Shown: positions 21,657 through 39,533, counted from the first letter of the stretch. The stretch is DNA of 64,000 bases from an uncultured Gammaproteobacteria bacterium (GCA_964415025.1 CAYPXF010000005.1:1484-65483), one strand, 5' to 3'. Notes: generated by a model not told the origin, from the letters alone. Numbers and translations: made by a program.

Positions 21657-22811
21657 ATGGCAAAACCAACAAGTTATCTGGGTGTTGATCTAGGAGGATC
21701 CAGCCTAAAAATCGTCGAGCTCAAAAGCGTCAATAACAGACCGCAGCTGGTTACCTATGGTCTGATAGACGAGACATATAATATTATCAAGGATGACAGC
21801 GCGTCAGCCCGCGCCGAAGTAGCCCGGCATTTGAAAGAGCTGACGAAGAGTTCGCGTGTTTCGACTGATAAAGTGGTTTCAGCATTACCGAGCTATAGCG
21901 TCTTCAGCTCTATCATCAGCCTGCCGGCCATGAGCAAAAAAGAGTTGATATCAGCAGTGCGCTGGGAAGCCAAGAAATTCGTGCCTATTCCACTCGAAGA
22001 AATGATCCTGGATTGGGAAGTGCTGGAACAGGGAGAATCAGCGGAAGACACGCGCGGAGAACAAGCCGCCGAAGACGCGCACGATGACGAAGCAGAGGAA
22101 AAAGCCGCAGAAGAAGATTCAGACAAAGATCAAAAAAAGAAAAAACCATCAATGTCATCCGGTGACAAGAAATCGATAAAAGTGTTACTAACTGCCGCAC
22201 CAAAAAATTTAGTAAACCGCTATGTTGAGGTGTTTAAGCAAGTAGACCTCCAGCTGGTCGGATTAGAGACTGAATCGTTTGCCCTGGAGCGATGCCTAAT
22301 AGGCAATGATTCTTCTCCTATCATGATTATTGATATCGGCAACAACGCTACAAGTATTATAATATTCAGCGGCGGTGTTCCAATTCTGAATCGCAGTATT
22401 GATGTTGGAGGTGCCAGTATTTCTAATAAGCTCGTAGAAGTAATGGGGCTAAACCAGGAGCAGGCAGAGCAATATAAACGTGATATGGGCACTAGCATGG
22501 CCGGTCAAAAAATCAGCGATTTACCACAGCCTGTTGCCCATGTTGTTAATTCAGTGATTAATGAAATCCGCTATATATTGAATATTTATCAAAACCAAAA
22601 CCGCCAGCATATTAAAAAAATTATTTTAACCGGCGGGTCGGCATTTTTAGCTAACCTTACAGAAAATATAGAAGATGTGTTTAATATAAAGTCATTTGTC
22701 GGTGATCCATGGGCCAGGGTAGTGCATCCAGTGGAAATTGACGGATTGCTAAAGGGCCTAGGACCGAGAATGTCTGTCAGTATTGGCCTAGCCATGAGAG
22801 AAATCAGCTAA
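21657..22811 (+). CDS. pilM: type IV pilus assembly ATPase-fold protein PilM
   Basis: 384 aa; N-terminus MAKPTSYLGVDLGGSSLKIVEL (actin-like PilM/FtsA fold) with an acidic low-complexity insertion. Confidence 0.8.
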   Translation: MAKPTSYLGVDLGGSSLKIVELKSVNNRPQLVTYGLIDETYNIIKDDSASARAEVARHLKELTKSSRVSTDKVVSALPSYSVFSSIISLPAMSKKELISAVRWEAKKFVPIPLEEMILDWEVLEQGESAEDTRGEQAAEDAHDDEAEEKAAEEDSDKDQKKKKPSMSSGDKKSIKVLLTAAPKNLVNRYVEVFKQVDLQLVGLETESFALERCLIGNDSSPIMIIDIGNNATSIIIFSGGVPILNRSIDVGGASISNKLVEVMGLNQEQAEQYKRDMGTSMAGQKISDLPQPVAHVVNSVINEIRYILNIYQNQNRQHIKKIILTGGSAFLANLTENIEDVFNIKSFVGDPWARVVHPVEIDGLLKGLGPRMSVSIGLAMREIS

Positions 22812-22846
22812 ATATTGACAAAATAGTAAATATATACCATAAAAAG

Positions 22847-22870
22847 AGTTTGCATGCGCAAACTTTTTTT
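22847..22870 (+). terminator. rho-independent terminator after pilM
   Basis: AGTTTGC-atgc-GCAAACT hairpin followed by TTTTTTT. Confidence 0.6.
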
Positions 22871-22915
22871 AGTTTACGAATACAATTAAAGTAAGGATAA
22901 AAAACTTAAAAAACC

Positions 22916-22944
22916 TTGACTTTGGCTAAAAAATATGCTAAAAT
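22916..22944 (+). promoter_or_regulatory. sigma70-like promoter for the pilN operon (TTGACT-17 nt-TAAAAT)
   Basis: near-consensus -35/-10 hexamers with 17-nt spacer, 160 nt upstream of the pilN ATG. Confidence 0.55.
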
Positions 22945-23046
22945 ATAGATATATTGCTCAAATATTGGCATAATGCTTGGCATATGTATGACCAAGGATT
23001 GTACTATATATAAAACAAAAATTATCCCGAATTAGCTAAAAATCAC

Positions 23047-23103: not shown

Positions 23104-24975
23104 ATGTCAATTAACCTGCTTCCTGAACAGGAAAAATCAAAAATAAAACCTACCAATAAGGCGTCAGTTACCCAAATAGAGATGACCGGACCGCGCCAAG
23201 GAGGAAACAAAAAACCGGCTGCTAAAGAGTCAGGTGTTTTGACATTTTTTAAACAGGCGTTTACTAAGCCAGGTGCACCGCAAACGGATGAAAAAAAGTT
23301 TCCGGAAAAAAAGGTCAGGATTATGGAACGTCCTGCCAAAAAAGCGGCCCATAAGCCAGAAACACAAAAGCAACCAGAACAAAATAAAAAGGTAGTCTAT
23401 ATTAAGCCGAGCGACGAAGGCATGCAGGCAGATAAAAGCAAAGGCATACTGGAAAAAGTATTAGACTTTTTCCGGAGTTTGTTTTCCGCAGGGACACCCC
23501 GCAATCAGCCTGCTGAGAAATCAGCCGCAGTCCCGGAGCCAAAAGAGGAATTCCCAACATATAAACCAATCACAACCAAACAAGTATCTGACAGCAATCA
23601 TGTCGATACTTCACAAGATAAGATAATCGAAGTAACAACTTCATATCAATCTGACGATGAGCAGGCAGCCAAGCCGGCGGCAGTTCCAGCTGACGTGCGC
23701 GAGGAAATGCCAGGCGCGCAACCGATAGTACGGCCGACGCGCACAAGCACACCAGCGCAGCCGATCCAGCAGCCGGAGGATAAGCATGAAAAAGAAACAA
23801 TAGAATTAGAGCGTACCGACCAGCCAGTTCCACGGGACAGACAATACACCGATCAGCAATCCAAAACCGTAGCAGAAAAAAAACCTGACACAGACAGACA
23901 AAACGCACTGATACGCTGGCTGCAGGGCGTGCTGCAGACTATTAAGAATCTATTTACCCGGGAGAAAAAGCCGGTGTCCTCCCCACCGCCGACAGAGCGA
24001 GGACGGGAAGCTGATAGCGACCAGCTGCCGAAGATCAGCCTAGAAAAAAGCACTGAAAATATTCACATTCCCGAAGCAGCCGATCGGAAAACAGCCTTAG
24101 ATGATTTACCGCCCCCTCCATCGCCTCCTGCAGAGGATACATCAGAGGCGGCAGCCGCAACACCTGCCGCGGAACTACAAAAAAAATCAGTACCCGACGA
24201 CATCGATCCGTCACCGGCTCCTGTTTTAGAAAGCGAAATAGATGCCGCGCCCCAGCCGACTGAGCTATCACGGCCTGCGGCGAGTATAAAACCCGGGAAG
24301 CACCCGCCGAAAAAAGAAAAAAAAGACAATGAGATAGCAATGACCAGTCCCCAGGAGCAGGAAGTGAAGCCAGCACTGCAGTGGGAGGTTAATCTCATCC
24401 CCGAGGATGCGGTCGAGGTGCGCATACCGGTGAGCCGTTATTTATATCTGGCGCTGGTCGGTATTGTCTGCGCCGGGCTGGTATTCGGCGGGTGGATAGC
24501 CGCCAACTGGTATTACAACAACATCACCACTGATATCAGTGAAGTTAATACACAGATTTCATCAGTAGAAATTCAGATAAATCAAAAAAAGAACGTTGTT
24601 GAACAGGTCCAGTACATAAACCAGCAGGCAGAACATGTCGCCAGCCTGATAGACGAACACGTGTACTGGTCGCCGTTGTTTACAAAAATCGAAAGCTATG
24701 TTGCGCCAGAGGTGTATTTCACCAGCATGAACGCCGATGTTAATGGCGTGGTTACCCTGACTGCTGTCGGTGAAAATTATGAGGCCGCTGTCAAACAGCT
24801 CTATGTGCTGGAACGCGCTGCTGACTTTGTCCAGCAGGCCAGTGTCGAGAATATATCCTTTGTCAGCGAGGGCGCTGCTATGGATACAGAAACGCAAGCA
24901 TCGGTTATTGTCGACCGTCCCGTCAATTTTTCGATCAAGCTAACAGTCGATCCGTTACTTTTTTCCCATCAATAA
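23104..24975 (+). CDS. pilN: PilN-like pilus assembly protein with ~430-aa Pro/Lys/Glu-rich disordered insertion
   Basis: 623 aa; N-terminal MSINLLPEQEK (the conserved PilN INLLP PilM-binding motif); long low-complexity region; single TM (YLYLALVGIVCAGLVFGGWIAANWYY); ~170-aa C-terminal periplasmic domain. Confidence 0.7.
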   Translation: MSINLLPEQEKSKIKPTNKASVTQIEMTGPRQGGNKKPAAKESGVLTFFKQAFTKPGAPQTDEKKFPEKKVRIMERPAKKAAHKPETQKQPEQNKKVVYIKPSDEGMQADKSKGILEKVLDFFRSLFSAGTPRNQPAEKSAAVPEPKEEFPTYKPITTKQVSDSNHVDTSQDKIIEVTTSYQSDDEQAAKPAAVPADVREEMPGAQPIVRPTRTSTPAQPIQQPEDKHEKETIELERTDQPVPRDRQYTDQQSKTVAEKKPDTDRQNALIRWLQGVLQTIKNLFTREKKPVSSPPPTERGREADSDQLPKISLEKSTENIHIPEAADRKTALDDLPPPPSPPAEDTSEAAAATPAAELQKKSVPDDIDPSPAPVLESEIDAAPQPTELSRPAASIKPGKHPPKKEKKDNEIAMTSPQEQEVKPALQWEVNLIPEDAVEVRIPVSRYLYLALVGIVCAGLVFGGWIAANWYYNNITTDISEVNTQISSVEIQINQKKNVVEQVQYINQQAEHVASLIDEHVYWSPLFTKIESYVAPEVYFTSMNADVNGVVTLTAVGENYEAAVKQLYVLERAADFVQQASVENISFVSEGAAMDTETQASVIVDRPVNFSIKLTVDPLLFSHQ

Positions 24976-24976
24976 T

Positions 24977-25561
24977 ATGAAATTCGCTTCCGTAAAAACA
25001 AGCATTTCACTGTTCTTCAATAAATACTTTATTGCGGTATTGATTGGCGTCGGGATATTAGTCCTGGCCGCTGGGTATTTTATCTTTATCAGTGGGATCA
25101 TGGCAGATATCCAGCAGGCCGGCTCAAGCGATTTGGAGGGGCGGCATCAGGTCTTGAACGCCAAACAGCGGACACTGCGCAAGCTCGAATCTCTGGAACA
25201 GCGGCATAAGCAGGTGACCGCGGCAGAAGTGGAACGCCTGGAAAAATTTCTCCCCATGGAAGACGATATTCCGCTGGTGATGATAGAGATAAAGGAATTT
25301 ATCGAACAAAATGATCTAACAGTCGCCTCGCTCGAAAGCGGTCCGCTGATCACCGGCAGCGACAGCGTAGCGGCCGAGGCGGATCAGGGCATCCAGGCGC
25401 TGAATATTACGGTTGCTATCAGCGGCATTGACAGCTATGTCAAGCTAAAAGATTTTCTGGATCAGATGAGCACGACGCTGCCGATCCTGGAGCTGAAGTC
25501 ATTAGCATATGTTCCGGGTACTGATACCTACAGCCTCAACCTGACAACCTATTACCAATAA
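24977..25561 (+). CDS. pilO: PilO-like pilus assembly protein
   Basis: 194 aa; N-terminal TM, coiled-coil, then alpha/beta domain; positioned after pilN. Confidence 0.6.
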   Translation: MKFASVKTSISLFFNKYFIAVLIGVGILVLAAGYFIFISGIMADIQQAGSSDLEGRHQVLNAKQRTLRKLESLEQRHKQVTAAEVERLEKFLPMEDDIPLVMIEIKEFIEQNDLTVASLESGPLITGSDSVAAEADQGIQALNITVAISGIDSYVKLKDFLDQMSTTLPILELKSLAYVPGTDTYSLNLTTYYQ

Positions 25562-25568
25562 GCGCAGT

Positions 25569-26735
25569 ATGGCCACAATAGATAAAAACAAAAAATTCTC
25601 CAAACGAACCATTATACTATTGGCAGTGTTCAGCGTTCTCCTGGTCGGCGGCGGATATTATGCGTATACGGTACTGTTTGCCGCTGGTGATACGGAGGAT
25701 TTATTATTGTCAGACGGAGCAATAGTAGCGGAACAACGCGTGGTCGTGCCAGAGTTTGAAGGGGACTTACTGACCAATAAGCAGTTTTTACAGTTTCAGA
25801 AAAAAACACCGTCCCAGTTCAGCGAACAGCTGGATGTCACTGTCAGGCCAGCAGACGCTGTAACCGCGCCAGGCGTTATCACGGTGCATAATTCTGGATA
25901 TGGCGATGCGCTCTTTGTTTCATGGACTGCTCCGGCAACAGCGGCTGACGCATATATCGTCTACCGTTCCCAAAACGCTAACGGCGGCTATGCTCCGCGT
26001 GCCATGGTCACCGGAGAGGAAACGGGATATGTAGACACGGCAGTCCAGCCAGGCAATACGTATTACTATACAGTCCGGTCAGTGCGCTCTGAAGAAATGA
26101 ATCGAGTCAGCGGCGTCACCAGCGCATCATCACCGCAAACAGGCATTCAGGTATCTGCCAATCAGGATGAGGCCGCGCGAATCAGCGTTGATGATTCGCC
26201 AGAGATTGATGCCCGGGTAGTACTGCGGCTGCGCGATGGACAAGAAAAACTGGTGGCAGTGATGACAGAAGGTCAGCGGACTGCCTATGACACTGGCGGG
26301 CAAACGTCAGACTCGTATACGGTTATTTTCTATTCTATGTTTTCCATGTCACAGGCGGCTGCCAGTGCCAGCCAGACGGTTACGGATACTGTCTTGCCAG
26401 ATCCGCCGACTGATATCCGGGTGGCAGTGGATGAGGCGGGCGAAAGCGTGCTCATAACATGGCGCAATCCAGACAGCCCGGACTTTAGTTATATTCGTAT
26501 CTACCGCTCTACGGCAAAAGGGTCGCTCGGTACGCTGATCAATCCGGAATCGTATAATTTCATCGGATTGTACGACCGGGAAAACGATTACTATTATTAC
26601 CAGGATACAAATGTTGAGCAGAACGTGGTTTACTATTATACTGTAACCAGTGTTGATAAGGCGGGTAACCAATCCAGCACCGATCTGCTGACAGTGCCGT
26701 ACCGCGCTAATCCGTTTGAACCAATTGTTTTTTAG
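25569..26735 (+). CDS. membrane-anchored protein with two fibronectin type III-like domains (T4P-associated, PilP/PilQ position)
   Basis: 388 aa; N-terminal TM; two FN3-like segments (…WTAPATAADAYIVYRS…YYYTVRSV and …ITWRNPDSPDFSYIRIYRS…YYYTVTSVDKAGNQS). Confidence 0.6.
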   Translation: MATIDKNKKFSKRTIILLAVFSVLLVGGGYYAYTVLFAAGDTEDLLLSDGAIVAEQRVVVPEFEGDLLTNKQFLQFQKKTPSQFSEQLDVTVRPADAVTAPGVITVHNSGYGDALFVSWTAPATAADAYIVYRSQNANGGYAPRAMVTGEETGYVDTAVQPGNTYYYTVRSVRSEEMNRVSGVTSASSPQTGIQVSANQDEAARISVDDSPEIDARVVLRLRDGQEKLVAVMTEGQRTAYDTGGQTSDSYTVIFYSMFSMSQAAASASQTVTDTVLPDPPTDIRVAVDEAGESVLITWRNPDSPDFSYIRIYRSTAKGSLGTLINPESYNFIGLYDRENDYYYYQDTNVEQNVVYYYTVTSVDKAGNQSSTDLLTVPYRANPFEPIVF

Positions 26736-26741: not shown

Positions 26742-28493
26742 ATGGAGCAAACACAACAACAAAAAAAACAATCAGCCATCCAGGTACTAATCGAGGAGGG
26801 GTTAGTGCCGACTGACCGCCTCGCCGAGATGAAAAAGCAGGCCAAGGACGAAGGAGAGCTGCTCGATCTTTTGAGTCGAAAAGGGATTGTTTCAGAGGAA
26901 GATATTACCAAGGCAAAAAGCAAAGTTCTGGGAGTTCCCTATATTGATTTATTTGGCAAATCTATTTCCCAGTCAGTGCTGCATATTATTCCCCGTGAGC
27001 TGGCGGATAATTATCATATTGTCGCTTTTGACAAGCAGGGCGATGAGGTGTCGGTAGCGATGGTTGATCCGGCTGATTTTAAGGCTATCGAAGCCTTGGA
27101 ATTCCTGGCCCGCGAAAATAATCTGAAAATAAAATACTATATTGTATCCATGAACGGCTTCCGTGAAGCGCATAAACAATACGCTACGCTGGGAGCAGAA
27201 GTAGAGGAAGCTCTTGCCAGTACTGAAAAGGAAGGCAAATCAGAGCTAGAGGAAATGTTATCCTCTGATAAGTCAGGCGAGGAAACGGTCAAGAGCGCTC
27301 CAGTATCAAAGATGGTTTCAGTCATCCTTAAACATGCTGTCGAGGGAGGCGCGTCGGATATTCATATCGAACCGGTGGAGAATGAAACCAGGGTGCGGTA
27401 TCGTGTCGACGGTGTACTGCACACCTCGCTGGTGTTGCCGCGCTATGTCCACTCATCAATTGTCGCCCGTATTAAGGTTATTTCAGATCTCAAGCTGGAT
27501 GAGACGCGTGTGCCGCAGGACGGGCGTTTCCGTACCGAGTGGGAAGGGCGTATTATCGATTACCGTGTTTCCACCCTGCCGCTGTTTAATAATGAAAAAG
27601 TGGTGATGCGTATTCTCGATCGCGCCGCGGTTGTTCTGGATCTAGAAAAACTTGGATTTGAGGGCGAGCATCTGGATGTCATGCGCGCATCGGTGAAGAA
27701 AACGGTCGGCATGATCCTGCTCACCGGTCCGACCGGATCTGGCAAATCCACCACCTTGTCCGCATTACTGACTATATTAAATAATGAAGAAACAAACATT
27801 ATCACTCTGGAAGATCCGGTCGAGTATTATATAGACGGCGTGAATCAGTCACAGATAAATACTGATGTCGGCCTCACCTTTGCTGCTGGTCTGCGCTCCA
27901 TCCTGCGTCAGGATCCTGATATTATCATGGTCGGTGAGATCCGTGATAATGAAACTGCCGAGCTGGCGGTACATGCCGCGCTGACCGGGCATTTGGTCTT
28001 GTCCACGCTCCATACTAACGACTCGTTTGGCGCTATACCCCGTATGATTGATATGAATATCGAACCGTTCCTGATTACCGCGGCGCTGAACACGGTGGTA
28101 GCCCAGCGGCTGGTCAGGCGACTCTGTCCGTACTGCCAAAAAGAAGCAAAGCTGCCAGAAGACCTCCAGCAATTCCTCGATAAGCAAATAAATCAAATCC
28201 CGCCAGAAATTATGGTCAAACGTTTTGGCAAGGAAAATCCAGAGCTGAAATTTTATGAAGCCGAGGGCTGTACTAAGTGTGAGAATACGGGCTACAAAGG
28301 ACGGGTGCTGATTGATGAAATATTAGAAGTAGACGAAGAGCTGAAAAACGTAGTGGTCACCAATCCGACTATTGATGCCATCCGCGAGACCGCTAAACGC
28401 CAGAATATGATTGCCATGGCCCAGGACGGCATTCTCAAGGCGCTGGACCGTAAAACGTCATTATCAGAAGTTCTCCGCGTGACCCAAGAATAA
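26742..28493 (+). CDS. pilB: type IV pilus extension ATPase PilB (GspE family)
   Basis: 583 aa; T2SSE_N-like N-terminus, Walker A LTGPTGSGKSTT, tetracysteine motif CPYC...CTKC. Confidence 0.9.
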   Translation: MEQTQQQKKQSAIQVLIEEGLVPTDRLAEMKKQAKDEGELLDLLSRKGIVSEEDITKAKSKVLGVPYIDLFGKSISQSVLHIIPRELADNYHIVAFDKQGDEVSVAMVDPADFKAIEALEFLARENNLKIKYYIVSMNGFREAHKQYATLGAEVEEALASTEKEGKSELEEMLSSDKSGEETVKSAPVSKMVSVILKHAVEGGASDIHIEPVENETRVRYRVDGVLHTSLVLPRYVHSSIVARIKVISDLKLDETRVPQDGRFRTEWEGRIIDYRVSTLPLFNNEKVVMRILDRAAVVLDLEKLGFEGEHLDVMRASVKKTVGMILLTGPTGSGKSTTLSALLTILNNEETNIITLEDPVEYYIDGVNQSQINTDVGLTFAAGLRSILRQDPDIIMVGEIRDNETAELAVHAALTGHLVLSTLHTNDSFGAIPRMIDMNIEPFLITAALNTVVAQRLVRRLCPYCQKEAKLPEDLQQFLDKQINQIPPEIMVKRFGKENPELKFYEAEGCTKCENTGYKGRVLIDEILEVDEELKNVVVTNPTIDAIRETAKRQNMIAMAQDGILKALDRKTSLSEVLRVTQE

Positions 28494-28511: not shown

Positions 28512-28901
28512 ATGAATAAACAGAAGCAAACAACGAAAATACTGGTCGTCGAGGATGATAAATTTCTCGCCGGTATGTATAACACAAAGCTGGATCTCGA
28601 AGGGTTTTCCGTCATCGTGGCTAATGACGGCGAAGAAGGATTACGACTGGCTGAATCTGAAAATCCGACGATTATCCTGCTCGACATCATTTTACCGAAA
28701 ATGAGCGGGTTTGATGTGCTCAAATCGCTCAAAAAAAACGAGCAAACAAAAAAGATTCCCGTGATTTTACTGACAAACCTAGGCCAGCGCGATGACGTGA
28801 ATAAAGGGCTTGAGCTGGGCGCTGAAGATTACCTGATCAAAGCGCATTTCATGCCGTCTGAAGTTGTCGAAAAAATAAAAAAACTGGCGGGCAAAAAATA
28901 G
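28512..28901 (+). CDS. stand-alone response-regulator receiver (CheY-like REC) protein embedded between pilB and pilC
   Basis: 129 aa; KILVVEDDKFLAGMY...LLDIILPKMSGFDVL...LLTNLGQRDDV...GAEDYLIKA; no output domain. Confidence 0.8.
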   Translation: MNKQKQTTKILVVEDDKFLAGMYNTKLDLEGFSVIVANDGEEGLRLAESENPTIILLDIILPKMSGFDVLKSLKKNEQTKKIPVILLTNLGQRDDVNKGLELGAEDYLIKAHFMPSEVVEKIKKLAGKK

Positions 28902-28939: not shown

Positions 28940-30145
28940 ATGGCCGAGTTTTTATACAAAGCACGAAACCAAGCTGGCAATGAAGTCAGCGGTGTTGTCA
29001 TGGCGCCGTCCGAAAATGTCGCCTATGGCATGCTGCGCGATAAAAACTTGTTTATTGTTTCGCTGAAGGAGAAAAAAACACTTGATATTCTGAAGGGGCT
29101 GAAGCTTTCCGGCGGCGTGAAGGCAAAAGACGTGGTAATATTTTCCCGGCAGCTGTCAGTGATGATGTCGTCTGACGTGCCGATTGTCCGGGCCCTGCGG
29201 GTGCTGATGCACCAGACTGATAATAAATACCTTAGCGAAGCGCTCGGCGACATAGCGGATGAAGTGGACGGCGGCGCCAAACTGTCCCAGGCCATGAAAA
29301 AATACCCAAAAATATTCAGTAATTTTTTCGTGCAAATGGTCCGGTCAGCGGAAACCACCGGACGTTTGGACGAAATTCTGGAGTATTTGGCAGACCAGGC
29401 GGAAAAAGACTATGACACGAGCAGCAAAGCGCGCGGTGCCATGATTTACCCGGCCTTTATCATCAGTGCCCTGGCGCTGGTCGGCGCGCTGATGATGATG
29501 TTTGTACTACCGCAGATTACCACGATTTTGACTGACAGCAACGTGGAATTGCCGATTACCACTCGGATTTTCATCGGCATCAGTGATATGCTGCGGGGGT
29601 ATTGGTGGGCCATACTGCTGGTTATCGGCGGACTATTATTTGGTTATCGCGCGGTAGTTAAAACTGCTGGCGGCCGCCGGTTTGTTGATATTGTGAAAAT
29701 CAGGATGCCGATATTCGGCCCGATATTTAATAAAACGTATTTGACGCGGTTCTCGCGTTCTTTATCCACCCTGCTTGCATCCGGTGTGACCCTGACGCGG
29801 TCGCTGGATATTGTGGCGGATGTTGTCGGCAATACGTTATATAGAGAAATTACCCAGCAAACCATAAAAGAGGTAGAGGCTGGCCGGTCGATCACCACTG
29901 TCTTTGTCCGGCAAAAGGAAGTACCACTCATGCTGGCGCAAATGATGAGCGTGGGGGAGCAGTCTGGTCAGCTGGATAAAATACTGGAAAAAATAGCTGA
30001 TTTTTACACGCGCGAGCTGGATAATTCTCTGCGTAATCTAACCACTCTGATCGAGCCGATCATCATGGTGGTGATGGGCGTGGCTGTCGGCTTCCTCGTG
30101 TCGGCAATTATTTTACCGATGTATAATTTATCTAATGCTATATAA
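28940..30145 (+). CDS. pilC: type IV pilus platform protein PilC (GspF family)
   Basis: 401 aa; two GspF repeats, three TM segments. Confidence 0.85.
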   Translation: MAEFLYKARNQAGNEVSGVVMAPSENVAYGMLRDKNLFIVSLKEKKTLDILKGLKLSGGVKAKDVVIFSRQLSVMMSSDVPIVRALRVLMHQTDNKYLSEALGDIADEVDGGAKLSQAMKKYPKIFSNFFVQMVRSAETTGRLDEILEYLADQAEKDYDTSSKARGAMIYPAFIISALALVGALMMMFVLPQITTILTDSNVELPITTRIFIGISDMLRGYWWAILLVIGGLLFGYRAVVKTAGGRRFVDIVKIRMPIFGPIFNKTYLTRFSRSLSTLLASGVTLTRSLDIVADVVGNTLYREITQQTIKEVEAGRSITTVFVRQKEVPLMLAQMMSVGEQSGQLDKILEKIADFYTRELDNSLRNLTTLIEPIIMVVMGVAVGFLVSAIILPMYNLSNAI

Positions 30146-30173: not shown

Positions 30174-30202
30174 TTGACATTTTGCTAAAAATATGATATT
30201 AT
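30174..30202 (+). promoter_or_regulatory. sigma70-like promoter for pilA (TTGACA-17 nt-TATTAT)
   Basis: consensus -35 and good -10 with 17-nt spacer, ~180 nt upstream of pilA. Confidence 0.55.
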
Positions 30203-30855: not shown

Positions 30856-30890
30856 AAAAGCGCTTCTTGTTGTAGGGGCGCTTTTTGTTT
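30856..30890 (+). terminator. rho-independent terminator after pilA
   Basis: AAAAGCGC...GCGCTTTTT hairpin plus T-run. Confidence 0.55.
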
Positions 30891-31053: not shown

Positions 31054-31182
31054 CCGTGTGTTGTCTTGAGTATTTCTATTTTAGAAACAAACAACTGTGT
31101 AGGAGAACGGTTTTGATTATCAAAAAAAACAATAACCTCCTTCTCATTGCTCGAAGGCGACTTCTTTTGTTATAATAAAAAT

Positions 31183-32169
31183 ATGATTGACACATCCATC
31201 ATCATCCTTAACTGGAATGGTCGCGAGCATTTGGAGACGTGCTTACAATCCGTGTTATCGCAGTCGTATAAACAATTCCGCGTGATTGTAGTAGATAATG
31301 GTTCTGATGATGGGTCTGTTGATTTTGTGAAAAAAAACTATCCTGATATTGAAATTATAATAAATAATAAAAACCTGGGATTTGCCGAGGGGAATAATAT
31401 TGGCATCAGAAGGGTGCTGAAGGATAAAAATATTCGATTTATTGCCACACTGAATAATGATACAGAAGTTAAAGTTGATTGGTTAGAAGCGTTAATTACG
31501 TTAATCAAGACTGACGATAACATTGGGGCAGTATCAAGTAAAATGCTATGGTTTGATAAGCGCGATGTGATAGATTCTACCGGTGATTATTTCTTACCGA
31601 GAACGCTGAAAGTGGTCACCCGCGGGTATAAGGAAAAAGACACCGGCCAATATGACAGGGAAGAGGAATGTTTGGCGGCCCGGGCCGGAGCGGCGCTGTA
31701 CCGGCGGGACATGCTGGAGGATATCCGGCTGGGGACTGATTTTTTTGACAAGAAGTTTTTCGCGTATATCGAGGATATAGACCTGTCCATCCGAGCCCGA
31801 TTGCGCGGCTGGAAAATCATGTACGCGCCGCACGCCGTGGTCTACCATAAGGTAGCGGCCACGACCAAACGGATTTCCTACGTGTTCCGCCGTTACCAGT
31901 CAGGCCGCAACCGGATATTTGCCGCAATTAAGAATTATCCAATTCACTGGTGGCCATTTGTATGGCGCGGACGGGAGTCGGTGGACAGCGATTACCGATT
32001 AGGTACTGGAGAAAATCTGAAATTATATTTAAAAATAGTAGGTTCTCTCATAGTAAACATGCCGCGCTTGCTGATCCAGCGGAATATTATCCAGGAGCGG
32101 AAAACTATTACCTATCAGGAGATGAAAAAATGGCGGGAGCAGTTAGTTGTCCACCGTAAACAGGACTGA
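31183..32169 (+). CDS. family 2 glycosyltransferase
   Basis: IILNWNGREHLETCLQSVLSQSY...FRVIVVDNGSDDGS GT-A fold signature; start at 31183 preferred over the ORF-track 31147. Confidence 0.75.
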   Translation: MIDTSIIILNWNGREHLETCLQSVLSQSYKQFRVIVVDNGSDDGSVDFVKKNYPDIEIIINNKNLGFAEGNNIGIRRVLKDKNIRFIATLNNDTEVKVDWLEALITLIKTDDNIGAVSSKMLWFDKRDVIDSTGDYFLPRTLKVVTRGYKEKDTGQYDREEECLAARAGAALYRRDMLEDIRLGTDFFDKKFFAYIEDIDLSIRARLRGWKIMYAPHAVVYHKVAATTKRISYVFRRYQSGRNRIFAAIKNYPIHWWPFVWRGRESVDSDYRLGTGENLKLYLKIVGSLIVNMPRLLIQRNIIQERKTITYQEMKKWREQLVVHRKQD

Positions 32170-32240: not shown

Positions 32241-34229
32241 ATGATTCTCGACCGGATTTCCGAACAAATAAATTCGTTTCGCCGCAATGTAATCGTGGGA
32301 ATTTTTTTATTTTTAGTCGTGTTTAGCTCACTTTTTTCCGGTGAATGGAATAACTGGGTCGTGAGCGTCCTGCTCATCCTGTCGTTCCCGCTGGTGTTTT
32401 TCATGATCATGGTCATCCGGGACGCGGCGCATAAACCGATACTTCGGTTTTCAGCCAGGTCACCGCTACTATATCTCATACTTTTCCTGCTGGTGGCTGT
32501 CATCAGCGGATTGTTTTTTTCTAGTGCTCCGCTGGCCAGTTTGCACCAGGCCAGCCAGTTGATGGGCTATGCTATTATTTTTCTGGTGGCCGGATTAATA
32601 CTGCGTGATTTTGGCCGGATCAAATTCATGAGCTGGATTATATTCAGTACCGGTGTACTGGCTGCGGTTATTAATATCATTCTGTTTGCCACAGATCCTA
32701 CAGTCCGGGCCGGCGGATTACTGCTCAATGCCAATGCCCTGGGCAGTTATGTATTGTTTAGCCTAGGACTCGGCATTACCCTGCTTCTCAAACCAACGCA
32801 AAAAAAAACAAAAGTACTTGTACTTGGAGGGACCGGCCTTATCGGATTAAGTTTTTTGCTCACGTTTTCCTATACTGGCTGGGTTAGTTTTATCCTGCCG
32901 CTCTTGATATATGCTTTTGCTTTTAAAACACAGCTTTTTCAGAGAAAAAAGGTTATCAGTTTTATTCTGGTGGTTATCACCGTTGTTGCCGCGGCGATTG
33001 GATTCCGCTATATGAGTACTGGTAATTTCAGCCAGGCCGTGCAGCTGCATAAAACAATCACTGCTGAAGCAGCGCAAACAAGTTTTTCCCAGCGATGGAA
33101 TTTTGTTATTTCATCTGGCGAAATATTTCTGGATAATCCGGTTATTGGGACGGGGCTGAATACATTCCAAAATATTTATCCGCAATACGCGCATACGCTG
33201 ATAGAACAGCCGCGGTACGCGCATAACTACTATTTGCAAACCGCGGCCGAGCTCGGGATATTCGGTTTCGCGGCTTTTACCGGGTTTGTGGTCCTGCTGC
33301 TACGGACCAGCTACCGGGTTATGAAAAGGGCTTTCCCAGATCCAGAAAAGCGGTATTATCTTACCGGGCTCGGATTAGGGCTGCTGGCTTCATGTATTCA
33401 CGCGGCGGTGGATTTTGGCTGGCGGTTTCCCGGTGTTTTTATCCTATTTTGGTTAATTGGCGGCATGTTCTGGGGACAGTCACTGCCGGTAGTATCGAGT
33501 GACCAGGCCAAGCCAAAGCGCAGTACGGTTAAAAATATCGCGACCGGCCTATTGCTGTTGATTGGTTTGGCGCTGTTAGTACGAGGCGTCACGTTATTTA
33601 TGAGTCAGGCGTATTTTGATAAAGGTCAGCGTGCAGCAGATCGTGATGAGCGGATAACAGCTCTGGCCGCTTATGAACAGGCGATACTGTTCAATCCATT
33701 GTCTGATACTGTCCGGGCCTATGCTGACATGGTTATTAACCAGCCGCCGCTTGATACTGCTGAACGACAAAATGCGTACACACAGGCAGAGACGTATTTA
33801 TTAGAATTCCGCAGCCGTAATACGATTGATTATTTTATTCCGTCGTCACTCGGCAGACTTCATATCGTGCTGGATGAGTATGATGATGCCGCGGCCTATT
33901 ACCAGGAGGCGATTTCCCTGGATCCGGTATTTCATCCCCGTTTTTACTATGACCTGGCGTTTATTTATTTTCAGCAAGGGGAGTATGAGAAAGTTTTCAG
34001 TACTACCTCTGGGATTATAGATACGTACGAAGGTATTGCCCGGACTTCAAATCCAAATCTGCCCCGGGATCTGGCTTTTCTCCACGCCCTCCGGGCTGAA
34101 GCTCATCTGGAACAGGGCGATACACAGGCCGCCATCGCGGAGTATATGAACGCGCTGGAACGCGAACCAGAATTTAGTATAGCTATCGAGGCATTAGCCG
34201 AACTGACTGGTGAATCAGGCAGTGAGTAG
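32241..34229 (+). CDS. O-antigen ligase (Wzy_C) domain membrane protein with C-terminal TPR repeats; candidate pilin O-oligosaccharyltransferase (PglL/TfpO-like)
   Basis: ~12 TM helices; Wzy_C motif YAHNYYLQTAAELGIFGF; C-terminal TPR-like repeats; sits directly downstream of pilA and the GT2 gene; ATG at 32241 preferred. Confidence 0.65.
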   Translation: MILDRISEQINSFRRNVIVGIFLFLVVFSSLFSGEWNNWVVSVLLILSFPLVFFMIMVIRDAAHKPILRFSARSPLLYLILFLLVAVISGLFFSSAPLASLHQASQLMGYAIIFLVAGLILRDFGRIKFMSWIIFSTGVLAAVINIILFATDPTVRAGGLLLNANALGSYVLFSLGLGITLLLKPTQKKTKVLVLGGTGLIGLSFLLTFSYTGWVSFILPLLIYAFAFKTQLFQRKKVISFILVVITVVAAAIGFRYMSTGNFSQAVQLHKTITAEAAQTSFSQRWNFVISSGEIFLDNPVIGTGLNTFQNIYPQYAHTLIEQPRYAHNYYLQTAAELGIFGFAAFTGFVVLLLRTSYRVMKRAFPDPEKRYYLTGLGLGLLASCIHAAVDFGWRFPGVFILFWLIGGMFWGQSLPVVSSDQAKPKRSTVKNIATGLLLLIGLALLVRGVTLFMSQAYFDKGQRAADRDERITALAAYEQAILFNPLSDTVRAYADMVINQPPLDTAERQNAYTQAETYLLEFRSRNTIDYFIPSSLGRLHIVLDEYDDAAAYYQEAISLDPVFHPRFYYDLAFIYFQQGEYEKVFSTTSGIIDTYEGIARTSNPNLPRDLAFLHALRAEAHLEQGDTQAAIAEYMNALEREPEFSIAIEALAELTGESGSE

Positions 34230-34278: not shown

Positions 34279-34761
34279 ATGAAACGAGGTTTTACATTAG
34301 TTGAACTGCTTATCACTATTTCCATCATTGGCATTTTGGCCGTACTGGGATTAGTGAGCCTGCAGGGTGCCCGTGCTTCGGCCAGGGATTCGCGCCGCAT
34401 TTCTGATCTGGCGCAGCTACGGCTCGGCTTAATGCTGTACTATGATGACCACCAACAATTTCCCATGCCGGTAGCCAACGGCCATGACGGACCAGACACC
34501 AGCGTCAGTACCACGACCGGAACAATTTTTTCGGATACTGACAATCCCCTGTATCCCAGGTATTTGAGCGCTCCGTTTGTAGATCCAAATAATAATGGCG
34601 CAACCGGCCACTATTATTACTATGATACTAACCAAAATACCGGGCATAATAATTATGTCTTGTGTTTTCATAAAGAAGGAGATGATCAACGATGGTTTTA
34701 TTTTTATTCTACCGGGATTTACGGCGAAGGGGATGCGTGCCCCACATTACCCGGCAGCTAA
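34279..34761 (+). CDS. type IV pilin paralog
   Basis: MKRG/FTLVELLITISIIGILAVLGL class III leader with Glu5; 160 aa. Confidence 0.8.
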   Translation: MKRGFTLVELLITISIIGILAVLGLVSLQGARASARDSRRISDLAQLRLGLMLYYDDHQQFPMPVANGHDGPDTSVSTTTGTIFSDTDNPLYPRYLSAPFVDPNNNGATGHYYYYDTNQNTGHNNYVLCFHKEGDDQRWFYFYSTGIYGEGDACPTLPGS

Positions 34762-34775: not shown

Positions 34776-35195
34776 ATGTTTAAATCAGAACACGGCTTAT
34801 CGCTAATCCAAATCCTCATCCTGGTGGCTGTGTTTGGTTTACTGATCGGCGGCGGGTTTTTATTGCTTAATAATGAAAAAGCCAAGACCAGGGATGCTAA
34901 GCGGCTATCTGATATTACCAGAATTCAGGCCGCGTTTGAATTTCTGTACAATCAAACAGCCAGTTATACCGCGGCCGCGCAGGACGGGTGCGATCAAGCC
35001 GGTATGCTGGCAAGCCAATGTAATTTAAGCGCATATATCCCGGCCATCAGGCAGTTCCGTGATCCGGGCAAGTATCAGTATGTAGTCACTACGGTGCCGG
35101 GCGATGATGCCTATGCCGTCACCTTTCAGCTGGAAAAGGAATACTATAATCTGACGGCAGGCCAGCACGTGCTGACCCAGGACGGGATACAGTAA
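34776..35195 (+). CDS. pilin-like protein with non-canonical leader (Gln at +5)
   Basis: MFKSEHG/LSLIQILILVAVFGLLIGGG; prepilin-like hydrophobic N-terminus lacking Glu5; C-terminal Cys pair. Confidence 0.55.
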   Translation: MFKSEHGLSLIQILILVAVFGLLIGGGFLLLNNEKAKTRDAKRLSDITRIQAAFEFLYNQTASYTAAAQDGCDQAGMLASQCNLSAYIPAIRQFRDPGKYQYVVTTVPGDDAYAVTFQLEKEYYNLTAGQHVLTQDGIQ

Positions 35196-35331: not shown

Positions 35332-36084
35332 ATGATAGGTTTTTTGGTGTTTGTTTTTGGACTGGTCATCGGCAGTTTTCTAAACGCGGTGATTTATCGT
35401 ATTCATGCCCGGGTCAGTTTTCTCCGCGGGCACTCGTTTTGTCCGGGCTGCCGTCATGACCTGCATGCGGCAGATTTGATACCGGTGTTCAGCTTCCTCT
35501 GGCAGCGCGGTAAGTGCCGATACTGCCACCAGCCTATTTCCTGGCAATACCCGCTCGTAGAAACAGCGACCGCGCTGATATTTTTTATGCTTTACGTGCA
35601 GTTTGGTTTGAGCGCGCAGTTTTTCGTGTATCTGGTTTATGCGGGATTTTTGATAGTTTTGTTTGTGTATGACCTGCGGTATTATCTCATTCCTGATCGG
35701 GTTTCCCTGCCGGGTATTATCGTCGCCTTTATCCTGTCATATTTTATCCTGGATATCGGCATTTTTAGCCTGATGGCCGGTACGCTGATCGGCGGCGGGT
35801 TTTTCCTGCTGCAATACGCGGTTTCCCGGGGCAGATGGATCGGCGGCGGCGACATCAGGCTGGGCGCGCTTATGGGCATGATGCTGGGCTGGCCGCAGGT
35901 AGTCGCTGCCCTGTTTATCGCGTATGTGACCGGTTCGATCGTGGGTATTTTTCTGATTGTATTGCGACAGAAAAAATGGCAGAGCCAGGTGCCGTTTGGC
36001 ACTTTTTTAACCGGGGCTACTGTGGTTACGTTTTTTTTCGGACCGCAGATAATTGATTTTTACCGGGATTTATTTTTGTTATGA
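35332..36084 (+). CDS. pilD: prepilin peptidase PilD (A24 family)
   Basis: N-terminal tetracysteine motif CPGC...CRYC; multiple TM helices; conserved Asp-containing loops. Confidence 0.85.
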   Translation: MIGFLVFVFGLVIGSFLNAVIYRIHARVSFLRGHSFCPGCRHDLHAADLIPVFSFLWQRGKCRYCHQPISWQYPLVETATALIFFMLYVQFGLSAQFFVYLVYAGFLIVLFVYDLRYYLIPDRVSLPGIIVAFILSYFILDIGIFSLMAGTLIGGGFFLLQYAVSRGRWIGGGDIRLGALMGMMLGWPQVVAALFIAYVTGSIVGIFLIVLRQKKWQSQVPFGTFLTGATVVTFFFGPQIIDFYRDLFLL

Positions 36085-36767
36085 AATACCGAACCGGATT
36101 TACCCTAACCGAACTGCTCATCTCTATCAGCATATTATCCCTGCTGACGATCATTATCATGGCAAACTTCCAGCACGGCCGGCGGGTGCAGGAATTGCGC
36201 CGGGCCGGCACCGAGCTGTCTCAGAATTTCCGGCTGGCCCAGAGCTATACTATCGGCGGCAATAGCGTTAATTTTTGCGATGTAAACAGCGATGATGATG
36301 CGTACCATCCGTGTATCAATGATGCAGCATGTGATGCAGGCAATGGCGAGTGTATTAATTCAGTGCCGCCAGGCGGGTATGGCATCCATCTCGGCTCTCC
36401 GTCAAGTTATAAATTATTCGGCGATACAGTCGACGATAATATATATGACACTGATCAGACTGATTACCTTGTCTTGGATAAATATTATACTGACCAGGGA
36501 ATTTCCTTTGTCCAATACAAATTAGGCGATGAAGCCGCGGTCGTGCCATCAGCCAGTGAATACCTAGATATAGTTTTTGAGCCGCCGGTAGGCACGATTA
36601 CCTTTTATCACAATGGCATCGAAGCAACCGACACTAGCACTGGACAGCTTATCAATGTAGCGCGCATATTAGTCGCCAGCAGTTTTGTGGATGAGCAATG
36701 CCGGACAATTACTATTAACAGGGTCTCTGGCCAGGTCAGCGAAGATCAGAGCGCCTGCAGTCTATAA
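36081..36767 (+). CDS. minor pilin (FimT/PilE-like)
   Basis: ATGA start/stop overlap with pilD; MKYRTG/FTLTELLISISILSLL leader. Confidence 0.75.
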   Translation: MKYRTGFTLTELLISISILSLLTIIIMANFQHGRRVQELRRAGTELSQNFRLAQSYTIGGNSVNFCDVNSDDDAYHPCINDAACDAGNGECINSVPPGGYGIHLGSPSSYKLFGDTVDDNIYDTDQTDYLVLDKYYTDQGISFVQYKLGDEAAVVPSASEYLDIVFEPPVGTITFYHNGIEATDTSTGQLINVARILVASSFVDEQCRTITINRVSGQVSEDQSACSL

Positions 36768-36770
36768 CGT

Positions 36771-37385
36771 ATGCGTATATATAAAGATAACCGAGGACAA
36801 AGTTTAGTGGAGCTGTTAGTCGCCCTGTTTATTTTAATTGTTGCCATCACCGCTACCATTGTTTTGATCGTGACCAGTATCAATGCCGGCCGGGACAGCC
36901 GCGACAAACTGGTCGGTACTAATCTGGCCCGCGAAGCGCTGGAAATAGTGCGCAATATCCGTGACAGCAATTGGACTGATCCGACTGCTGCTGACTGGCA
37001 CGAAGGGCTGACCGGCGGTAACACGGCCGTGCCGATTATCGATGGTGCGAGTGCATTCAGTCTTGATTTTACGGTAAGTGATTTTACCGATACCACGTGG
37101 ACCAGACTGCGGGAAACAGGCGGAGCGTTTGTACAGGATAGTGCTGATACCGGGAATTCCAGGTATTACCGCATGCTGTATATTAATCCAATCTGCCGGG
37201 ACGCGGCTGGTGATGACAATATTGCCACTGATTTGGATAATACTGATGCCTGCGGTAATGGGGTTCATACTGGCTATCCCCAGGAAGTTGGTCTGCGCGT
37301 CATAGCTGAAGTGCGGTATCCCAGCGCTGATTCTGATAAAAAAGTGCAGCTCGAGGAGCGGCTGTATGATTGGCAAGTTTTATAA
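36771..37385 (+). CDS. minor pilin (PilV-like)
   Basis: MRIYKDNRGQ/SLVELLVALFILIVAIT prepilin leader. Confidence 0.7.
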   Translation: MRIYKDNRGQSLVELLVALFILIVAITATIVLIVTSINAGRDSRDKLVGTNLAREALEIVRNIRDSNWTDPTAADWHEGLTGGNTAVPIIDGASAFSLDFTVSDFTDTTWTRLRETGGAFVQDSADTGNSRYYRMLYINPICRDAAGDDNIATDLDNTDACGNGVHTGYPQEVGLRVIAEVRYPSADSDKKVQLEERLYDWQVL

Positions 37386-37450
37386 ACAATTACCAATTTT
37401 CAATCAACAATTTCCAAGTAAGCCCCAATTTCTAATGTTCTAATACTCAA

Positions 37451-38182
37451 ATGAATTTTTCTAGGAATAATAAAGGATTTACCTTGATCGAGATGCTGAT
37501 CGCGCTGTCGATTTTTATTCTGGTCATGCTGGCCGGAGTCAATGTCTACTTCGTCATCAGCACGGCCCAGCACCGGACCGTGGCCCTGCAAAAAGTGCAG
37601 GATGACGTGCGGTATTTGTACGAGGCCATGGCCCAGGAAATCAGGCTCGGCACTATCAATTATACTTTTTACGATACAGAGAACATCAGCCTGCATCCGA
37701 ACATAAGCGGCGATGGAATAACTTCAATACTAGCACTCCAGGACCAGTTACATGTGCCGGTGTATTACCGTTTGCAGGGGACAGCGGTGCAATACTGCCG
37801 GGTAGACGATAGCGCTAGTATTGACTGTGATCTGACTGATCATGACCAGTGGCAAAATGTGACGCCCTCCGGGGTCGAGGTTACGAGCCTGGGATTTTTC
37901 ATCACCCCAAGTGCTGATCCGTTTGTTAATGCCGGAGAAGCGGTTGATTGTTCGAGCGGAGGACAAGCTGATTGCGATGTCTCATACCGCTGCGATGCCG
38001 GCGCAACCAACACTTGCTTATACTACAGTGACGGAAATAATTTTCAACCAAAAGTACAGATGCAGCTGACGGCCCGGGCGCTTGATAGCCGCATACCAGA
38101 GGAATCGCGCACGCTTCATTTCCAGACAATGGTTTCATCCAGAATTTTTCAGGGCCAAATCCAAAACAATAATTATGAGTAA
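37451..38182 (+). CDS. minor pilin (PilW-like)
   Basis: MNFSRNNKG/FTLIEMLIALSIFILVML prepilin leader. Confidence 0.75.
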   Translation: MNFSRNNKGFTLIEMLIALSIFILVMLAGVNVYFVISTAQHRTVALQKVQDDVRYLYEAMAQEIRLGTINYTFYDTENISLHPNISGDGITSILALQDQLHVPVYYRLQGTAVQYCRVDDSASIDCDLTDHDQWQNVTPSGVEVTSLGFFITPSADPFVNAGEAVDCSSGGQADCDVSYRCDAGATNTCLYYSDGNNFQPKVQMQLTARALDSRIPEESRTLHFQTMVSSRIFQGQIQNNNYE

Positions 38183-39533
38183 ACATTATTCACAACGCGG
38201 TTCTGTCTTATTGTATTCACTGCTGGTGATTACACTGCTGACGGCTATTGCCATCACCGTATCTATTATCGTGGTTAATGAGATCAAGCTAAGCGCGGCC
38301 TCGGCTAATGCAACCATGGCGTATTATGCGGCCGAGTCAGGCATAGAGCGCGGATTATATGAAGTAAAAATAAACCGTGACAGTGCCGCTCTTACATCGA
38401 CACTGAATACGATTCAGGGCTTCACCGCTGACCATGATTTTGTTAATAATGCTGATTATGCCAACGATCAGTCTGATCAAGAAAGCTCCTCCATCACTAA
38501 CGAGTTTATCGTCCATAATAACTATACCCAGGCTGATTATTATGATGTCGATGATCCGTTGGATACGACGCTGCCAGATAATACGATAGTCAAATCAATC
38601 GAAATAAAAAATGGCGATACTACAAACCCTGATTCCAGCTCGTGGGCAGAAGTATCCTGGACTGCCTGGGATGATTCGGGCACATTACTGGCGTCAGACA
38701 GAGCCAGAAAAATTATCGGACCAAGCGATCTGGAAGATCCGGGCTGGACAATAAATGATTTGGATGTTTTCGACGGTGATCCGGTTGGTTACCGCATCCG
38801 TATCCGGGCCCTATTTGGCGACCTTTCATCACTTACCGTAGTGCCGTATGACACGTTTGGTTCGCAGATAACTGACCAGCTGCCATCTCACATCCGCATC
38901 AAGTCAGTGGGTGAGCGTAATAACTTTAAGCAGTCGTTGACCGCCACGGTGCCGTGGAAAGTGCCGCTGTTTGGTTTGTATGACTATGTGCTGTTCAGCG
39001 AAGGGGAAATTATGAAGACAATTATCTTGAGCCAGCCGGTGTATAGTTCTGGAACCATCGGGGTAGAGGAGGATAATACAACGGCTGGTTTATGTACAAA
39101 CTGTGCCGGCGGTAGCTCATGTGCAGATGAAGGATGGCTGGCCACATCATGCAGTCTTACTGCCTCATGCACGATCCAGGCGGCGCCTAACCCATCGTAT
39201 TGTTCGCTACCGAGCGCTGTAGATTCATTCACATTGCCGATTCCTGATGAAGTATCGGCCGGACCAGAGTTTTATATCAGTCTGCGGGAAAAGGCTACTT
39301 CTGGTACAAGTCTGGAACTAAATATCAGTGATCCGATAGAGGGTGATCTGGGTTTGGTGCACGATATTCCGGCGGACAGTGATTGGCAGACGTGCACGAT
39401 TGCCGAGTCATTCCCCTTGAGCGGGGAAACAGGACGGAGTATCATGTTCAGCAACAGGAGCGCAAATAATATAGACATTGACTGGTACCAGATCAGCTCG
39501 TATAAGATATTTGATGACTGTGAGGGAAGTTAG
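38175..39533 (+). CDS. PilX-like minor pilin / pilus tip protein
   Basis: ATG at 38175 overlaps the previous stop (ATGA); MSKHYSQRGSVLLYSLLVITLLTAIAIT...AYYAAESGIE matches the PilX N-terminal domain; the ORF-track start at 38082 would overlap the upstream gene. Confidence 0.7.
   Translation: MSKHYSQRGSVLLYSLLVITLLTAIAITVSIIVVNEIKLSAASANATMAYYAAESGIERGLYEVKINRDSAALTSTLNTIQGFTADHDFVNNADYANDQSDQESSSITNEFIVHNNYTQADYYDVDDPLDTTLPDNTIVKSIEIKNGDTTNPDSSSWAEVSWTAWDDSGTLLASDRARKIIGPSDLEDPGWTINDLDVFDGDPVGYRIRIRALFGDLSSLTVVPYDTFGSQITDQLPSHIRIKSVGERNNFKQSLTATVPWKVPLFGLYDYVLFSEGEIMKTIILSQPVYSSGTIGVEEDNTTAGLCTNCAGGSSCADEGWLATSCSLTASCTIQAAPNPSYCSLPSAVDSFTLPIPDEVSAGPEFYISLREKATSGTSLELNISDPIEGDLGLVHDIPADSDWQTCTIAESFPLSGETGRSIMFSNRSANNIDIDWYQISSYKIFDDCEGS

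Follow-up and report, generated by a model that had tools for sequence, protein, structure and literature searches.

The ultrasmall Patescibacteria have few conserved surface machines, type IV pili (Tfp) being one of them. These serve host attachment and motility, and are essential in Saccharibacteria. Almost all that is known about Patescibacterial pili comes from this one class. Here, we describe a Tfp (pil) locus that shows the version of a Parcubacteria-type lineage and lies at positions 21,657-39,533 of a stretch of 64,000 nucleotides (GCA_964415025.1, CAYPXF010000005.1:1484-65483), hereafter the window, deposited as DNA of an uncultured Gammaproteobacteria bacterium. We are fairly confident that it is the main type IVa-like pilus cluster of a monoderm Patescibacterium near Candidatus Kerfeldbacteria, whose nearest relatives encode the PilT-family partner elsewhere.

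Two kinds of monoderm Tfp that have no secretin are the Clostridial (Gram-positive) T4aP-like pili and the ComG pili, which are reportedly reviewed together by Melville and Craig in 2013. Clostridial loci normally encode a canonical PilT, whereas ComG systems lack PilT as well as PilM, PilN, and PilO, and have a short ComGA. We know of no Clostridial or ComG locus in which a response regulator is inserted after pilB. Pilin oligosaccharyltransferases of the Wzy_C family are encoded beside pilA in other species, as exemplified by TfpO/PilO in Pseudomonas aeruginosa and PglL in Neisseria.

Patescibacteria have been described as a monoderm phylum (PMC11665869). In Nanosynbacter lyticus TM7x, the T4P-1 locus has the order pilM-N-O-?-B-T-C-A-D, including pilB1-pilT-pilC1 (PMC12206443). 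In cyanobacteria, the CheY-like regulators PixG/PixH and PixE reportedly act on PilB1/PilC (PMC11181946; bioRxiv 10.1101/2021.06.11.447907).

Results

Composition and host of the pil locus

We scanned open reading frames (ORFs) of at least 120 amino acids (aa) in the window with Pfam and NCBIfam models, which were judged against their curated cutoffs, and read the sequences directly. This revealed 17 co-directional, tightly packed genes on the + strand across 21,657-39,533, among which PilM, PilB, PilC, PilD, and pilins were identified, bearing out an earlier reading of the sequence alone (the sequence-only reading) that had proposed a complete Tfp locus here. Four of the encoded proteins (623, 194, 139, and 452 aa) have no above-cutoff match to a hidden Markov model (HMM) and were read directly. 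There are seven pilin-like ORFs, five with an N_methyl prepilin motif and two more with no HMM match, and several of them have class III (G|FTLxE) leaders. Gene calls slightly corrected three starts, i.e. those of the major pilin (30,385), the Wzy_C protein (32,241), and the last gene (38,175). An Rfam scan returned a tRNA-Pro only, and nothing tied to the pilus locus.

An identical PilB was found only in an unannotated NCBI metagenome contig (65,666 bp) and in the Logan assembly of run SRR7048225. The taxonomic placement is based on the 120 best PilB matches, with identities of 55-79%. The only names among them are Patescibacteria group, Candidatus Kerfeldbacteria, Candidatus Nomurabacteria, or simply "bacterium." Judged by these homologues, the host is a Patescibacterium, i.e. 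a member of the candidate phyla radiation (CPR), with Candidatus Kerfeldbacteria as its nearest relatives. We rejected a gammaproteobacterial origin since all close homologues that bear a name are Patescibacterial and since the gene order agrees with that of Kerfeldbacteria genomes. Two other contigs (relatives' loci and protein matches are designated below by L and P numbers, respectively), those of L002 (CAZJUO010000084.1) and L003 (CAZIOP010000001.1), are also titled "uncultured Gammaproteobacteria bacterium" and carry pilus loci orthologous to Patescibacteria/Kerfeldbacteria loci, so this label looks wrong for them on sequence comparison.

No match to the Secretin family (PF00263) was found among the scanned ORFs, in agreement with the sequence-only reading. 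A missing secretin is expected because the phylum has been described as monoderm, and the monoderm envelope proposed in that reading fits the Patescibacterial affiliation of the PilB relatives (PMC11665869). When the 64 kb were searched by tblastn using as queries the PilB from the window, Aquifex PilT, and two CPR proteins, one PilT-like and the other a canonical PilT, no second ATPase of the GspE/PilT family was found, the only matching region being PilB at 26,742-28,493. The window therefore contains a single GspE-family ATPase and no PilT, as had been proposed. For this phylum, a stretch of 64 kb with neither a secretin nor pilT is to be expected and not surprising in itself. The sequence-only reading had gone on to suggest that, were PilT absent genome-wide, the pilus would be extension-only or would rely on a bifunctional PilB. 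This finds no support at the level of the lineage, since three close relatives carry a distal PilT-family gene, and the idea of a genome-wide absence is probably wrong. The PilT homologues of the relatives are non-canonical, however, so that they may not provide a conventional retraction motor either.

Synteny in relatives and relocation of pilT

Three loci with PilB proteins 69-79% identical to that of the window, L011 (a JGI contig), L012 (Kerfeldbacteria), and L016, have the same organization and no PilT. Their common order is giant protein, PilM, long PilN, PilO, FN3 protein, PilB, response regulator, PilC, pilin, and glycosylation genes. Beyond the latter, L012 and L016 continue with pilins, PilD, and minor pilins, while L011 departs from this order after the first pilin, having a different glycosylation cassette up to the end of the locus. 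The PilT-less order combined with a distal PilT-family gene was found in L012 and L016, both read at full length, and in L002, read from PilN to mid-PilB (again with PilB identities of 69-79%). In more distant loci pilT is found inside the operon. The order is PilB-response regulator-PilT-PilC in L013 (877-kb ENA contig; PilB 63% identical) and L014 (Candidatus Nomurabacteria CP060223.1; 58%), and PilB-pilin-PilT-PilC in L025. Because L013, L014, L025, and TM7x T4P-1 all have pilT within the operon, this is likely to be its ancestral position, from which it would have been lost in the subclade of the window.

Distal pilT genes were searched for with the L013 PilT as query and then with one of its matches, P0218, and the matches were paired with the contigs of PilB relatives. 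The PilT-family protein P0218 is encoded on CP181398.1 (1,309,938 bp), and the L016 PilB (P0031) on a contig of 1,309,938 bp. Similarly, P0257 shares a 1,116,013-bp contig with the L012 PilB (P0022), and P0251 is encoded on CAZJUO010000023.1, in the same metagenome-assembled genome as the L002 PilB, which is 79% identical to that of the window and its best match in the species-representative genome collection. The distal context, lytR-der-pth-pilT-pilM2-mfd-dprA-topA, is the same in L015, L017, and L020, and L023 is cut at the upstream end. In all four, the PilT-like gene is followed by a second pilM paralogue (345-351 aa) whose product is ∼32% identical to the locus PilM. By phylogenetic bracketing, the genome from which the window originates very probably has a distal PilT-family gene too.

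Two proteins were considered as the window's own PilT and rejected, P0234 because it comes from other samples and P0251 because it belongs to the 79%-identity relative in the same sample. When PilT candidates were ranked by the mirror-tree approach for agreement with the PilB distances, P0256 came first (r = 0.89), which is a hint only.

A non-canonical PilT family in the CPR

The His box, Asp box, and Walker motifs are conserved across the family and needed for activity, which is abolished by mutations in these motifs, and a His-box histidine contacts the γ-phosphate (McCallum 2017, PMC5424180). We aligned 168 CPR PilT-like matches (in the range P0121-P0289, none of them in the window) to Aquifex PilT (2EWV). 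Both His-box histidines are missing in 167 of these 168 proteins, one degenerate group having R...N/S/D and the other R...E in their place. Furthermore, the Asp box has lost its Asp to another residue, the Gly preceding the catalytic Glu in Walker B is a Ser, and the Arg-Asp that follows is gone. In the degenerate type that includes the in-locus PilTs, the Walker A Lys is changed to Arg in 100 of 119 proteins. One of them, P0121 from L013, has a Walker A GSGR and no His box. This substitution co-varies with an Arg-to-Lys change in the second Arg finger, with 100 Arg in Walker A and 93 Lys in the finger in this group, versus 42 Lys and 42 Arg, respectively, in the other. The type present in the nearest relatives of the window retains the Walker A Lys and the catalytic Glu (each in 42 of 48 proteins), both Asp-box Glu and the first Arg finger (48 of 48), and the second Arg finger (42, with Lys in the other six). 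On the PilT/PilU model, P0251 and P0121 score 326 and 334 bits, just above the cutoff of 319, versus 450 bits for a canonical CPR PilT (P0240). The CPR PilT-like proteins may be either re-wired ATPases or pseudo-ATPases, both being candidates, and the genomes may encode an extra, canonical PilT.

These features bear on the question whether there is a working retraction ATPase at all. The relocated PilT homologue could be an adaptor that is non-catalytic or only weakly active. In this case, which comes close to what the sequence-only reading had speculated, the pilus would either only extend, or retract passively, or depend for its retraction on PilB as controlled by the response regulator. Such a scenario is in keeping with the negative tblastn search of the 64 kb, with the His-box and Walker A substitutions in motifs needed for activity (PMC5424180), and with the precedent of the PilT-less, possibly non-retractile T4P-2 of TM7x (PMC12206443). 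Yet the nearest clade mostly keeps its Walker A Lys and catalytic Glu and invariably its Asp-box Glu and first Arg finger, and the co-variation between Walker A and the second Arg finger has the appearance of re-wiring with selection still at work, not of a dead site. Moreover, the best 120 matches were covered, and an additional canonical PilT may be encoded elsewhere in the relatives' genomes. We therefore regard the lack of a working retraction ATPase as unlikely, and favor a Patescibacterial Tfp cluster whose PilT-family partner is encoded at a distance.

Motor, response regulator, and platform protein

The extension ATPase PilB (26,742-28,493) matches PF00437 (3.8e-128, 428 bits) and the MshEN domain PF05157 (3.5e-15), and carries canonical Walker A, Asp box, Walker B, and His box motifs, together with a CxxC...CxxC zinc-binding Cys motif. 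Its score on TIGR02538, 550 bits, is under the equivalog cutoff of 676, and hence supports family-level membership only. Among the PilB matches, three of ∼1010 aa (P0054, P0068, and P0093), from CPR relatives whose PilB are 57-59% identical, consist of a full-length PilB fused in tandem to a further PilB-like ATPase core that bears zinc-finger cysteines of its own. They were considered as PilB-PilT fusions, which was rejected in favor of PilB-PilB tandems.

Directly 3' of pilB is a gene encoding a receiver-only, CheY-like response regulator (28,512-28,901; PF00072, 2.8e-23, 82.6 bits) with intact receiver residues, namely D15/D16, the phospho-acceptor D58, T88, and K110. Orthologues occupy the same position in L003, L011, L012, L013, L014, and L016, with 38-73% identity (60-73% without L003), and among them D15, D16, D58, and K110 never vary and T88 hardly does. 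A 130-aa gene between pilB and pilT in L025, considered as a possible cryptic receiver, was rejected since it is a pilin fragment. The platform protein PilC (28,940-30,145) has two T2SSF repeats (PF00482, 3.1e-62, 208 bits) and scores 341 bits on a Thermus-type PilC model.

Four further receiver-only proteins are encoded in the window on the - strand (43,548-43,982, 54,060-54,437, 55,965-56,348, and 56,415-56,825), one of which, encoded between gatA and ndk, shares 57% identity with the regulator of the pilus locus. Also encoded are a 7TM-GAF histidine kinase and a kinase-less GAF paralogue (47,928-49,394 and 51,019-53,262). Most of these extra receiver and GAF genes are within a low-GC stretch at 46-58 kb (32-39% GC), which also contains an AbiEii toxin gene.

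Predicted alignment module

PilM (21,657-22,811), an actin-like cytoplasmic ring protein, is well supported by PF11104 (2.4e-41) and TIGR01175 (192.5 bits versus a cutoff of 133). Around residues 125-175, it has an insert of ∼50 residues that is highly acidic and then lysine-rich. The next gene (23,104-24,975) encodes a bitopic protein of 623 aa, considered PilN-like by its INLLP motifs, its transmembrane (TM) helix, and its place between pilM and pilO. It begins with MSINLLPEQ, in which the INLLP-type motif at residues 3-7 is the PilM-binding signature of PilN. A second INLLP-type motif is found at residues 429-433 (WEVNLIPED), ∼20 residues ahead of the single TM helix, after which comes an extracytoplasmic domain. 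The two motifs are separated by ∼420 low-complexity residues, a linker that explains the low GC content and strong AT skew of the 22-24 kb flank. This double motif is also present in L011, L012, L016, and L013, and in L014 the N-terminal copy is INLLK.

The following bitopic protein of 194 aa (24,977-25,561) is PilO-like or GspM-like, with scores of 19.2 bits on PF04350 (cutoff 22) and 20.3 bits on GspM. Its orthologues in L013 and L025 do match PilO. In the slot that corresponds to pilP/pilQ in diderm species is a gene for a membrane-anchored, FN3-like protein of 388 aa (25,569-26,735), with weak FN3-like Pfam matches and orthologues whose fn3 matches are faint or weak. A single-sequence AlphaFold2 model suggests an N-terminal helix followed by an all-β part, with a mean pLDDT of 36 that is too low for use. 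As judged from its sequence matches, this protein is not a secretin.

Pilins, prepilin peptidase, and glycosylation genes

The probable major pilin is a protein of 150 aa (30,385-30,837; N_methyl, 1.7e-09) with the processing site MKRK-G|FTLIELL and a C-terminal Cys pair, whose sequence is almost unchanged in L012, where PilB is 73% identical. Its gene is bracketed by its own promoter-like and terminator-like sites. The former (30,174-30,202, + strand) is the best sigma-70-like match of the locus, a consensus match only, with 11/12 positions and an extended -10. The latter (30,856-30,885, + strand) is the strongest intrinsic-terminator-like hairpin, with a 12-bp stem and a T run, just 3' of the pilin gene. 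A second, GspG-like pilin of 160 aa (34,279-34,761; N_methyl, 6e-07; MKR-G|FTLVELL) is 40% identical to the first. It is followed by a pilin-like protein of 139 aa (34,776-35,195) with no HMM match, an atypical leader (G|LSLIQ), and no Glu at +5, which resembles pilins by its N-terminal helix and a KTRDAKRLSDI motif, and has orthologues of 139 aa in L012 and L016 and 146 aa in L013. Next come the prepilin peptidase PilD (35,332-36,084; A24 family; PF06750, 4e-32; PF01478, 4.6e-15) and three minor pilins, of 228 aa (36,081-36,767; N_methyl, 5.9e-06; weak ComGD/ComGE matches), 204 aa (36,771-37,385; N_methyl, 2.7e-04; weakly PilV-like, with a sub-cutoff 26 bits on TIGR02523), and 243 aa (37,451-38,182; N_methyl, 2.4e-08). 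The last gene of the locus (38,175-39,533), which also comes after the minor pilins in L012 and L016, encodes a PilX-like, pilin-like protein of 452 aa with no family match, a hydrophobic N terminus (QRG|SVLLYSLLV), and a Cys-rich C terminus, which is a candidate tip or priming subunit.

Two genes between the first two pilins are predicted to be involved in glycosylation. The first encodes a family-2 glycosyltransferase (GT2; 31,147-32,169; PF00535, 2.6e-25, with generic GT2 matches). The second encodes an O-antigen-ligase-like (Wzy_C) polytopic protein with C-terminal tetratricopeptide repeats (TPRs; 32,241-34,229; PF04932, 3.8e-23, plus TPRs), whose best NCBIfam match, 53.6 bits and sub-cutoff, is the exosortase-associated "putative O-glycosylation ligase" TIGR03097. 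The Wzy_C gene is kept between pilin genes in L012, L013, and L016. By its domain and its adjacency to the pilins, this protein is a candidate pilin O-oligosaccharyltransferase.

Upstream surface proteins

Immediately upstream of pilM, a gene on the + strand (11,801-21,490) encodes a giant membrane-anchored surface protein of ∼3229 aa with an N-terminal TM segment and weak fn3 and DUF6923 matches. Large proteins (∼1000-4400 aa) are likewise encoded upstream of pilM in L011, L012, L013, L014, and L016, including one of 1648 aa in L013 and giants of 3900-4400 aa in the three closest relatives, L011, L012, and L016. In L011 and L016, a gene for a 23S-rRNA-intervening-sequence protein (PF05635) lies between the giant protein and pilM. 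The giant protein is thus conserved context and possibly an adhesin, its membership of the pilus system being that of a candidate only. Further 5', three secreted paralogues of 944, 1290, and 827 aa are encoded in tandem on the + strand (2,587-11,795). They match no Pfam family, except for weak Kelch and Reg_prop matches in the first (944 aa), and share an N-terminal signal, an EP...PP..N segment, and a C..GQF.KG......CR(P/E)L ending at the C terminus.

Discussion

The gene content of this locus suggests how the pilus would be assembled. By family membership, PilD would cleave the prepilins, a PilB hexamer acting on PilC would polymerize the major pilin (30,385-30,837), and the minor pilins together with the PilX-like protein would form the priming complex for polymerization. 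PilM, PilN, and PilO would hold the motor at the membrane, with PilM binding the N-terminal motif of PilN. There being no outer membrane, a secretin would not be needed. On gene order, the Wzy_C/TPR ligase probably O-glycosylates the pilins, with the adjacent GT2 contributing to the glycan, and the receiver-only regulator most likely tunes the motor through a phosphorylation-dependent protein contact. The cluster would have lost pilT from an ancestral pilB-response regulator-pilT-pilC arrangement. The nearest relatives encode a PilT-family partner elsewhere, beside pilM2 and near mfd-dprA-topA, and this genome is expected to be no exception. More speculatively, the two INLLP motifs in PilN might each be used by a different PilM paralogue, of which one is encoded next to the distal PilT.

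Several points weigh against this reading. The function of the locus is read here from its genes, its expression and structure being predictions. The PilN and PilO assignments are drawn from motifs, topology, position, and sub-threshold matches, while pilin glycosylation and the target of the response regulator, both probable, were deduced from gene order only. The distal pilT in the window's own genome is likewise deduced from relatives, whose non-canonical PilT homologues may lack retraction-motor function.

The cluster could instead encode mainly a DNA-uptake (competence) pilus rather than an adhesion/motility pilus. Patescibacteria are enriched in competence machinery (PMC11665869), only two genes separate dprA from the distal pilT-pilM2 pair of the relatives, and the minor pilins weakly match ComGD/ComGE/ComGF. 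However, the architecture is T4aP-like rather than ComG-like, with a full-length PilB including its N-terminal domain and with PilM/N/O, and the family scans of the window found no comEA or comEC. In TM7x, deletion of T4P-2 lowered host binding and the PilT-bearing T4P-1 appears to drive twitching motility (PMC12206443). Together with the giant surface protein and the glycosylation cassette, which point to surface interaction, this makes competence a doubtful main role, even if both roles can coexist. A type II secretion-like pseudopilus exporting proteins such as the large upstream ones is very improbable because, although the pilins match GspG models (43 bits), GspE models give PilB nearly the score that PilB models do, and the PilO-like protein weakly resembles GspM, every GspG, GspE, and GspM score is sub-cutoff while PilM passes its own, no GspD, GspC, or GspL was found in the window, and the same architecture in Saccharibacteria yields real pili by cryo-electron tomography (PMC12206443).

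Taken together, our findings favor a type IVa-like pilus cluster of a monoderm Patescibacterium with a distally encoded PilT-family partner. A bolder proposal, which we consider a long shot, is that the Kerfeldbacteria-like pilus runs without a conventional retraction motor. The His-box-less protein, as the only PilT relative, would have left the operon, paired with the second PilM, and would dock on the extra INLLP motif of PilN as a regulatory or weakly active component gated by the receiver. If true, the switch of a Tfp between extension and retraction would work differently here. More generally, if the non-canonical PilT family is inactive or re-wired, it bears on how pili are retracted without a standard motor.

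How does this locus compare with known systems? It is neither a type II secretion system nor a ComG system, the parts that define these having been tested for and not found. Although ComGA and ComGB models give sub-cutoff matches that cover PilB and PilC partially, PilM is present. Like TfpO/PglL, the Wzy_C polytopic protein is encoded directly beside pilin genes, but it has C-terminal TPRs and no match to a specific PglL/TfpO model. The response regulator resembles its cyanobacterial counterparts in having no DNA-binding output, and those reportedly act by contacting the motor. There, however, the regulators belong to chemotaxis-like operons, and some have PATAN domains, whereas here a bare receiver is found inside the pilus operon. 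Closer to home, the core genes of L013 and L014 are all orthologous to those of the window (PilB 58-64% and response regulator 60-67% identical), including an additional, N-terminal INLLP-type motif in PilN (INLLK in L014), but their PilT-like gene stays in the cluster.

The closest characterized systems are T4P-1 and T4P-2 of TM7x, which belong to the same phylum-level group, have no secretin, and share the order pilM-pilN-pilO-x-pilB-...-pilC-pilA-pilD-minor pilins (PMC12206443). With T4P-2, which is possibly non-retractile, there is a precedent in Patescibacteria for a pilus locus that has no PilT of its own (PMC12206443). A PilT-less Patescibacterial locus is thus already known, and what the sequence-only reading reported is largely what the phylum predicts. 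The differences lie elsewhere. In T4P-1, pilT is flanked directly by pilB and pilC, with no response regulator among the listed genes, whereas the window has a receiver-only regulator at this site and no pilT. As judged by gene order and descriptions, the window is further set apart from TM7x by the pilin glycosylation pair, the ∼420-residue insert and second INLLP motif in PilN, the FN3 protein, and the giant upstream protein. The variant features relative to TM7x are therefore a response regulator where pilT used to be, a glycosylation cassette, a double-motif PilN with an FN3 protein, and, in the relatives, a relocated, non-canonical PilT.

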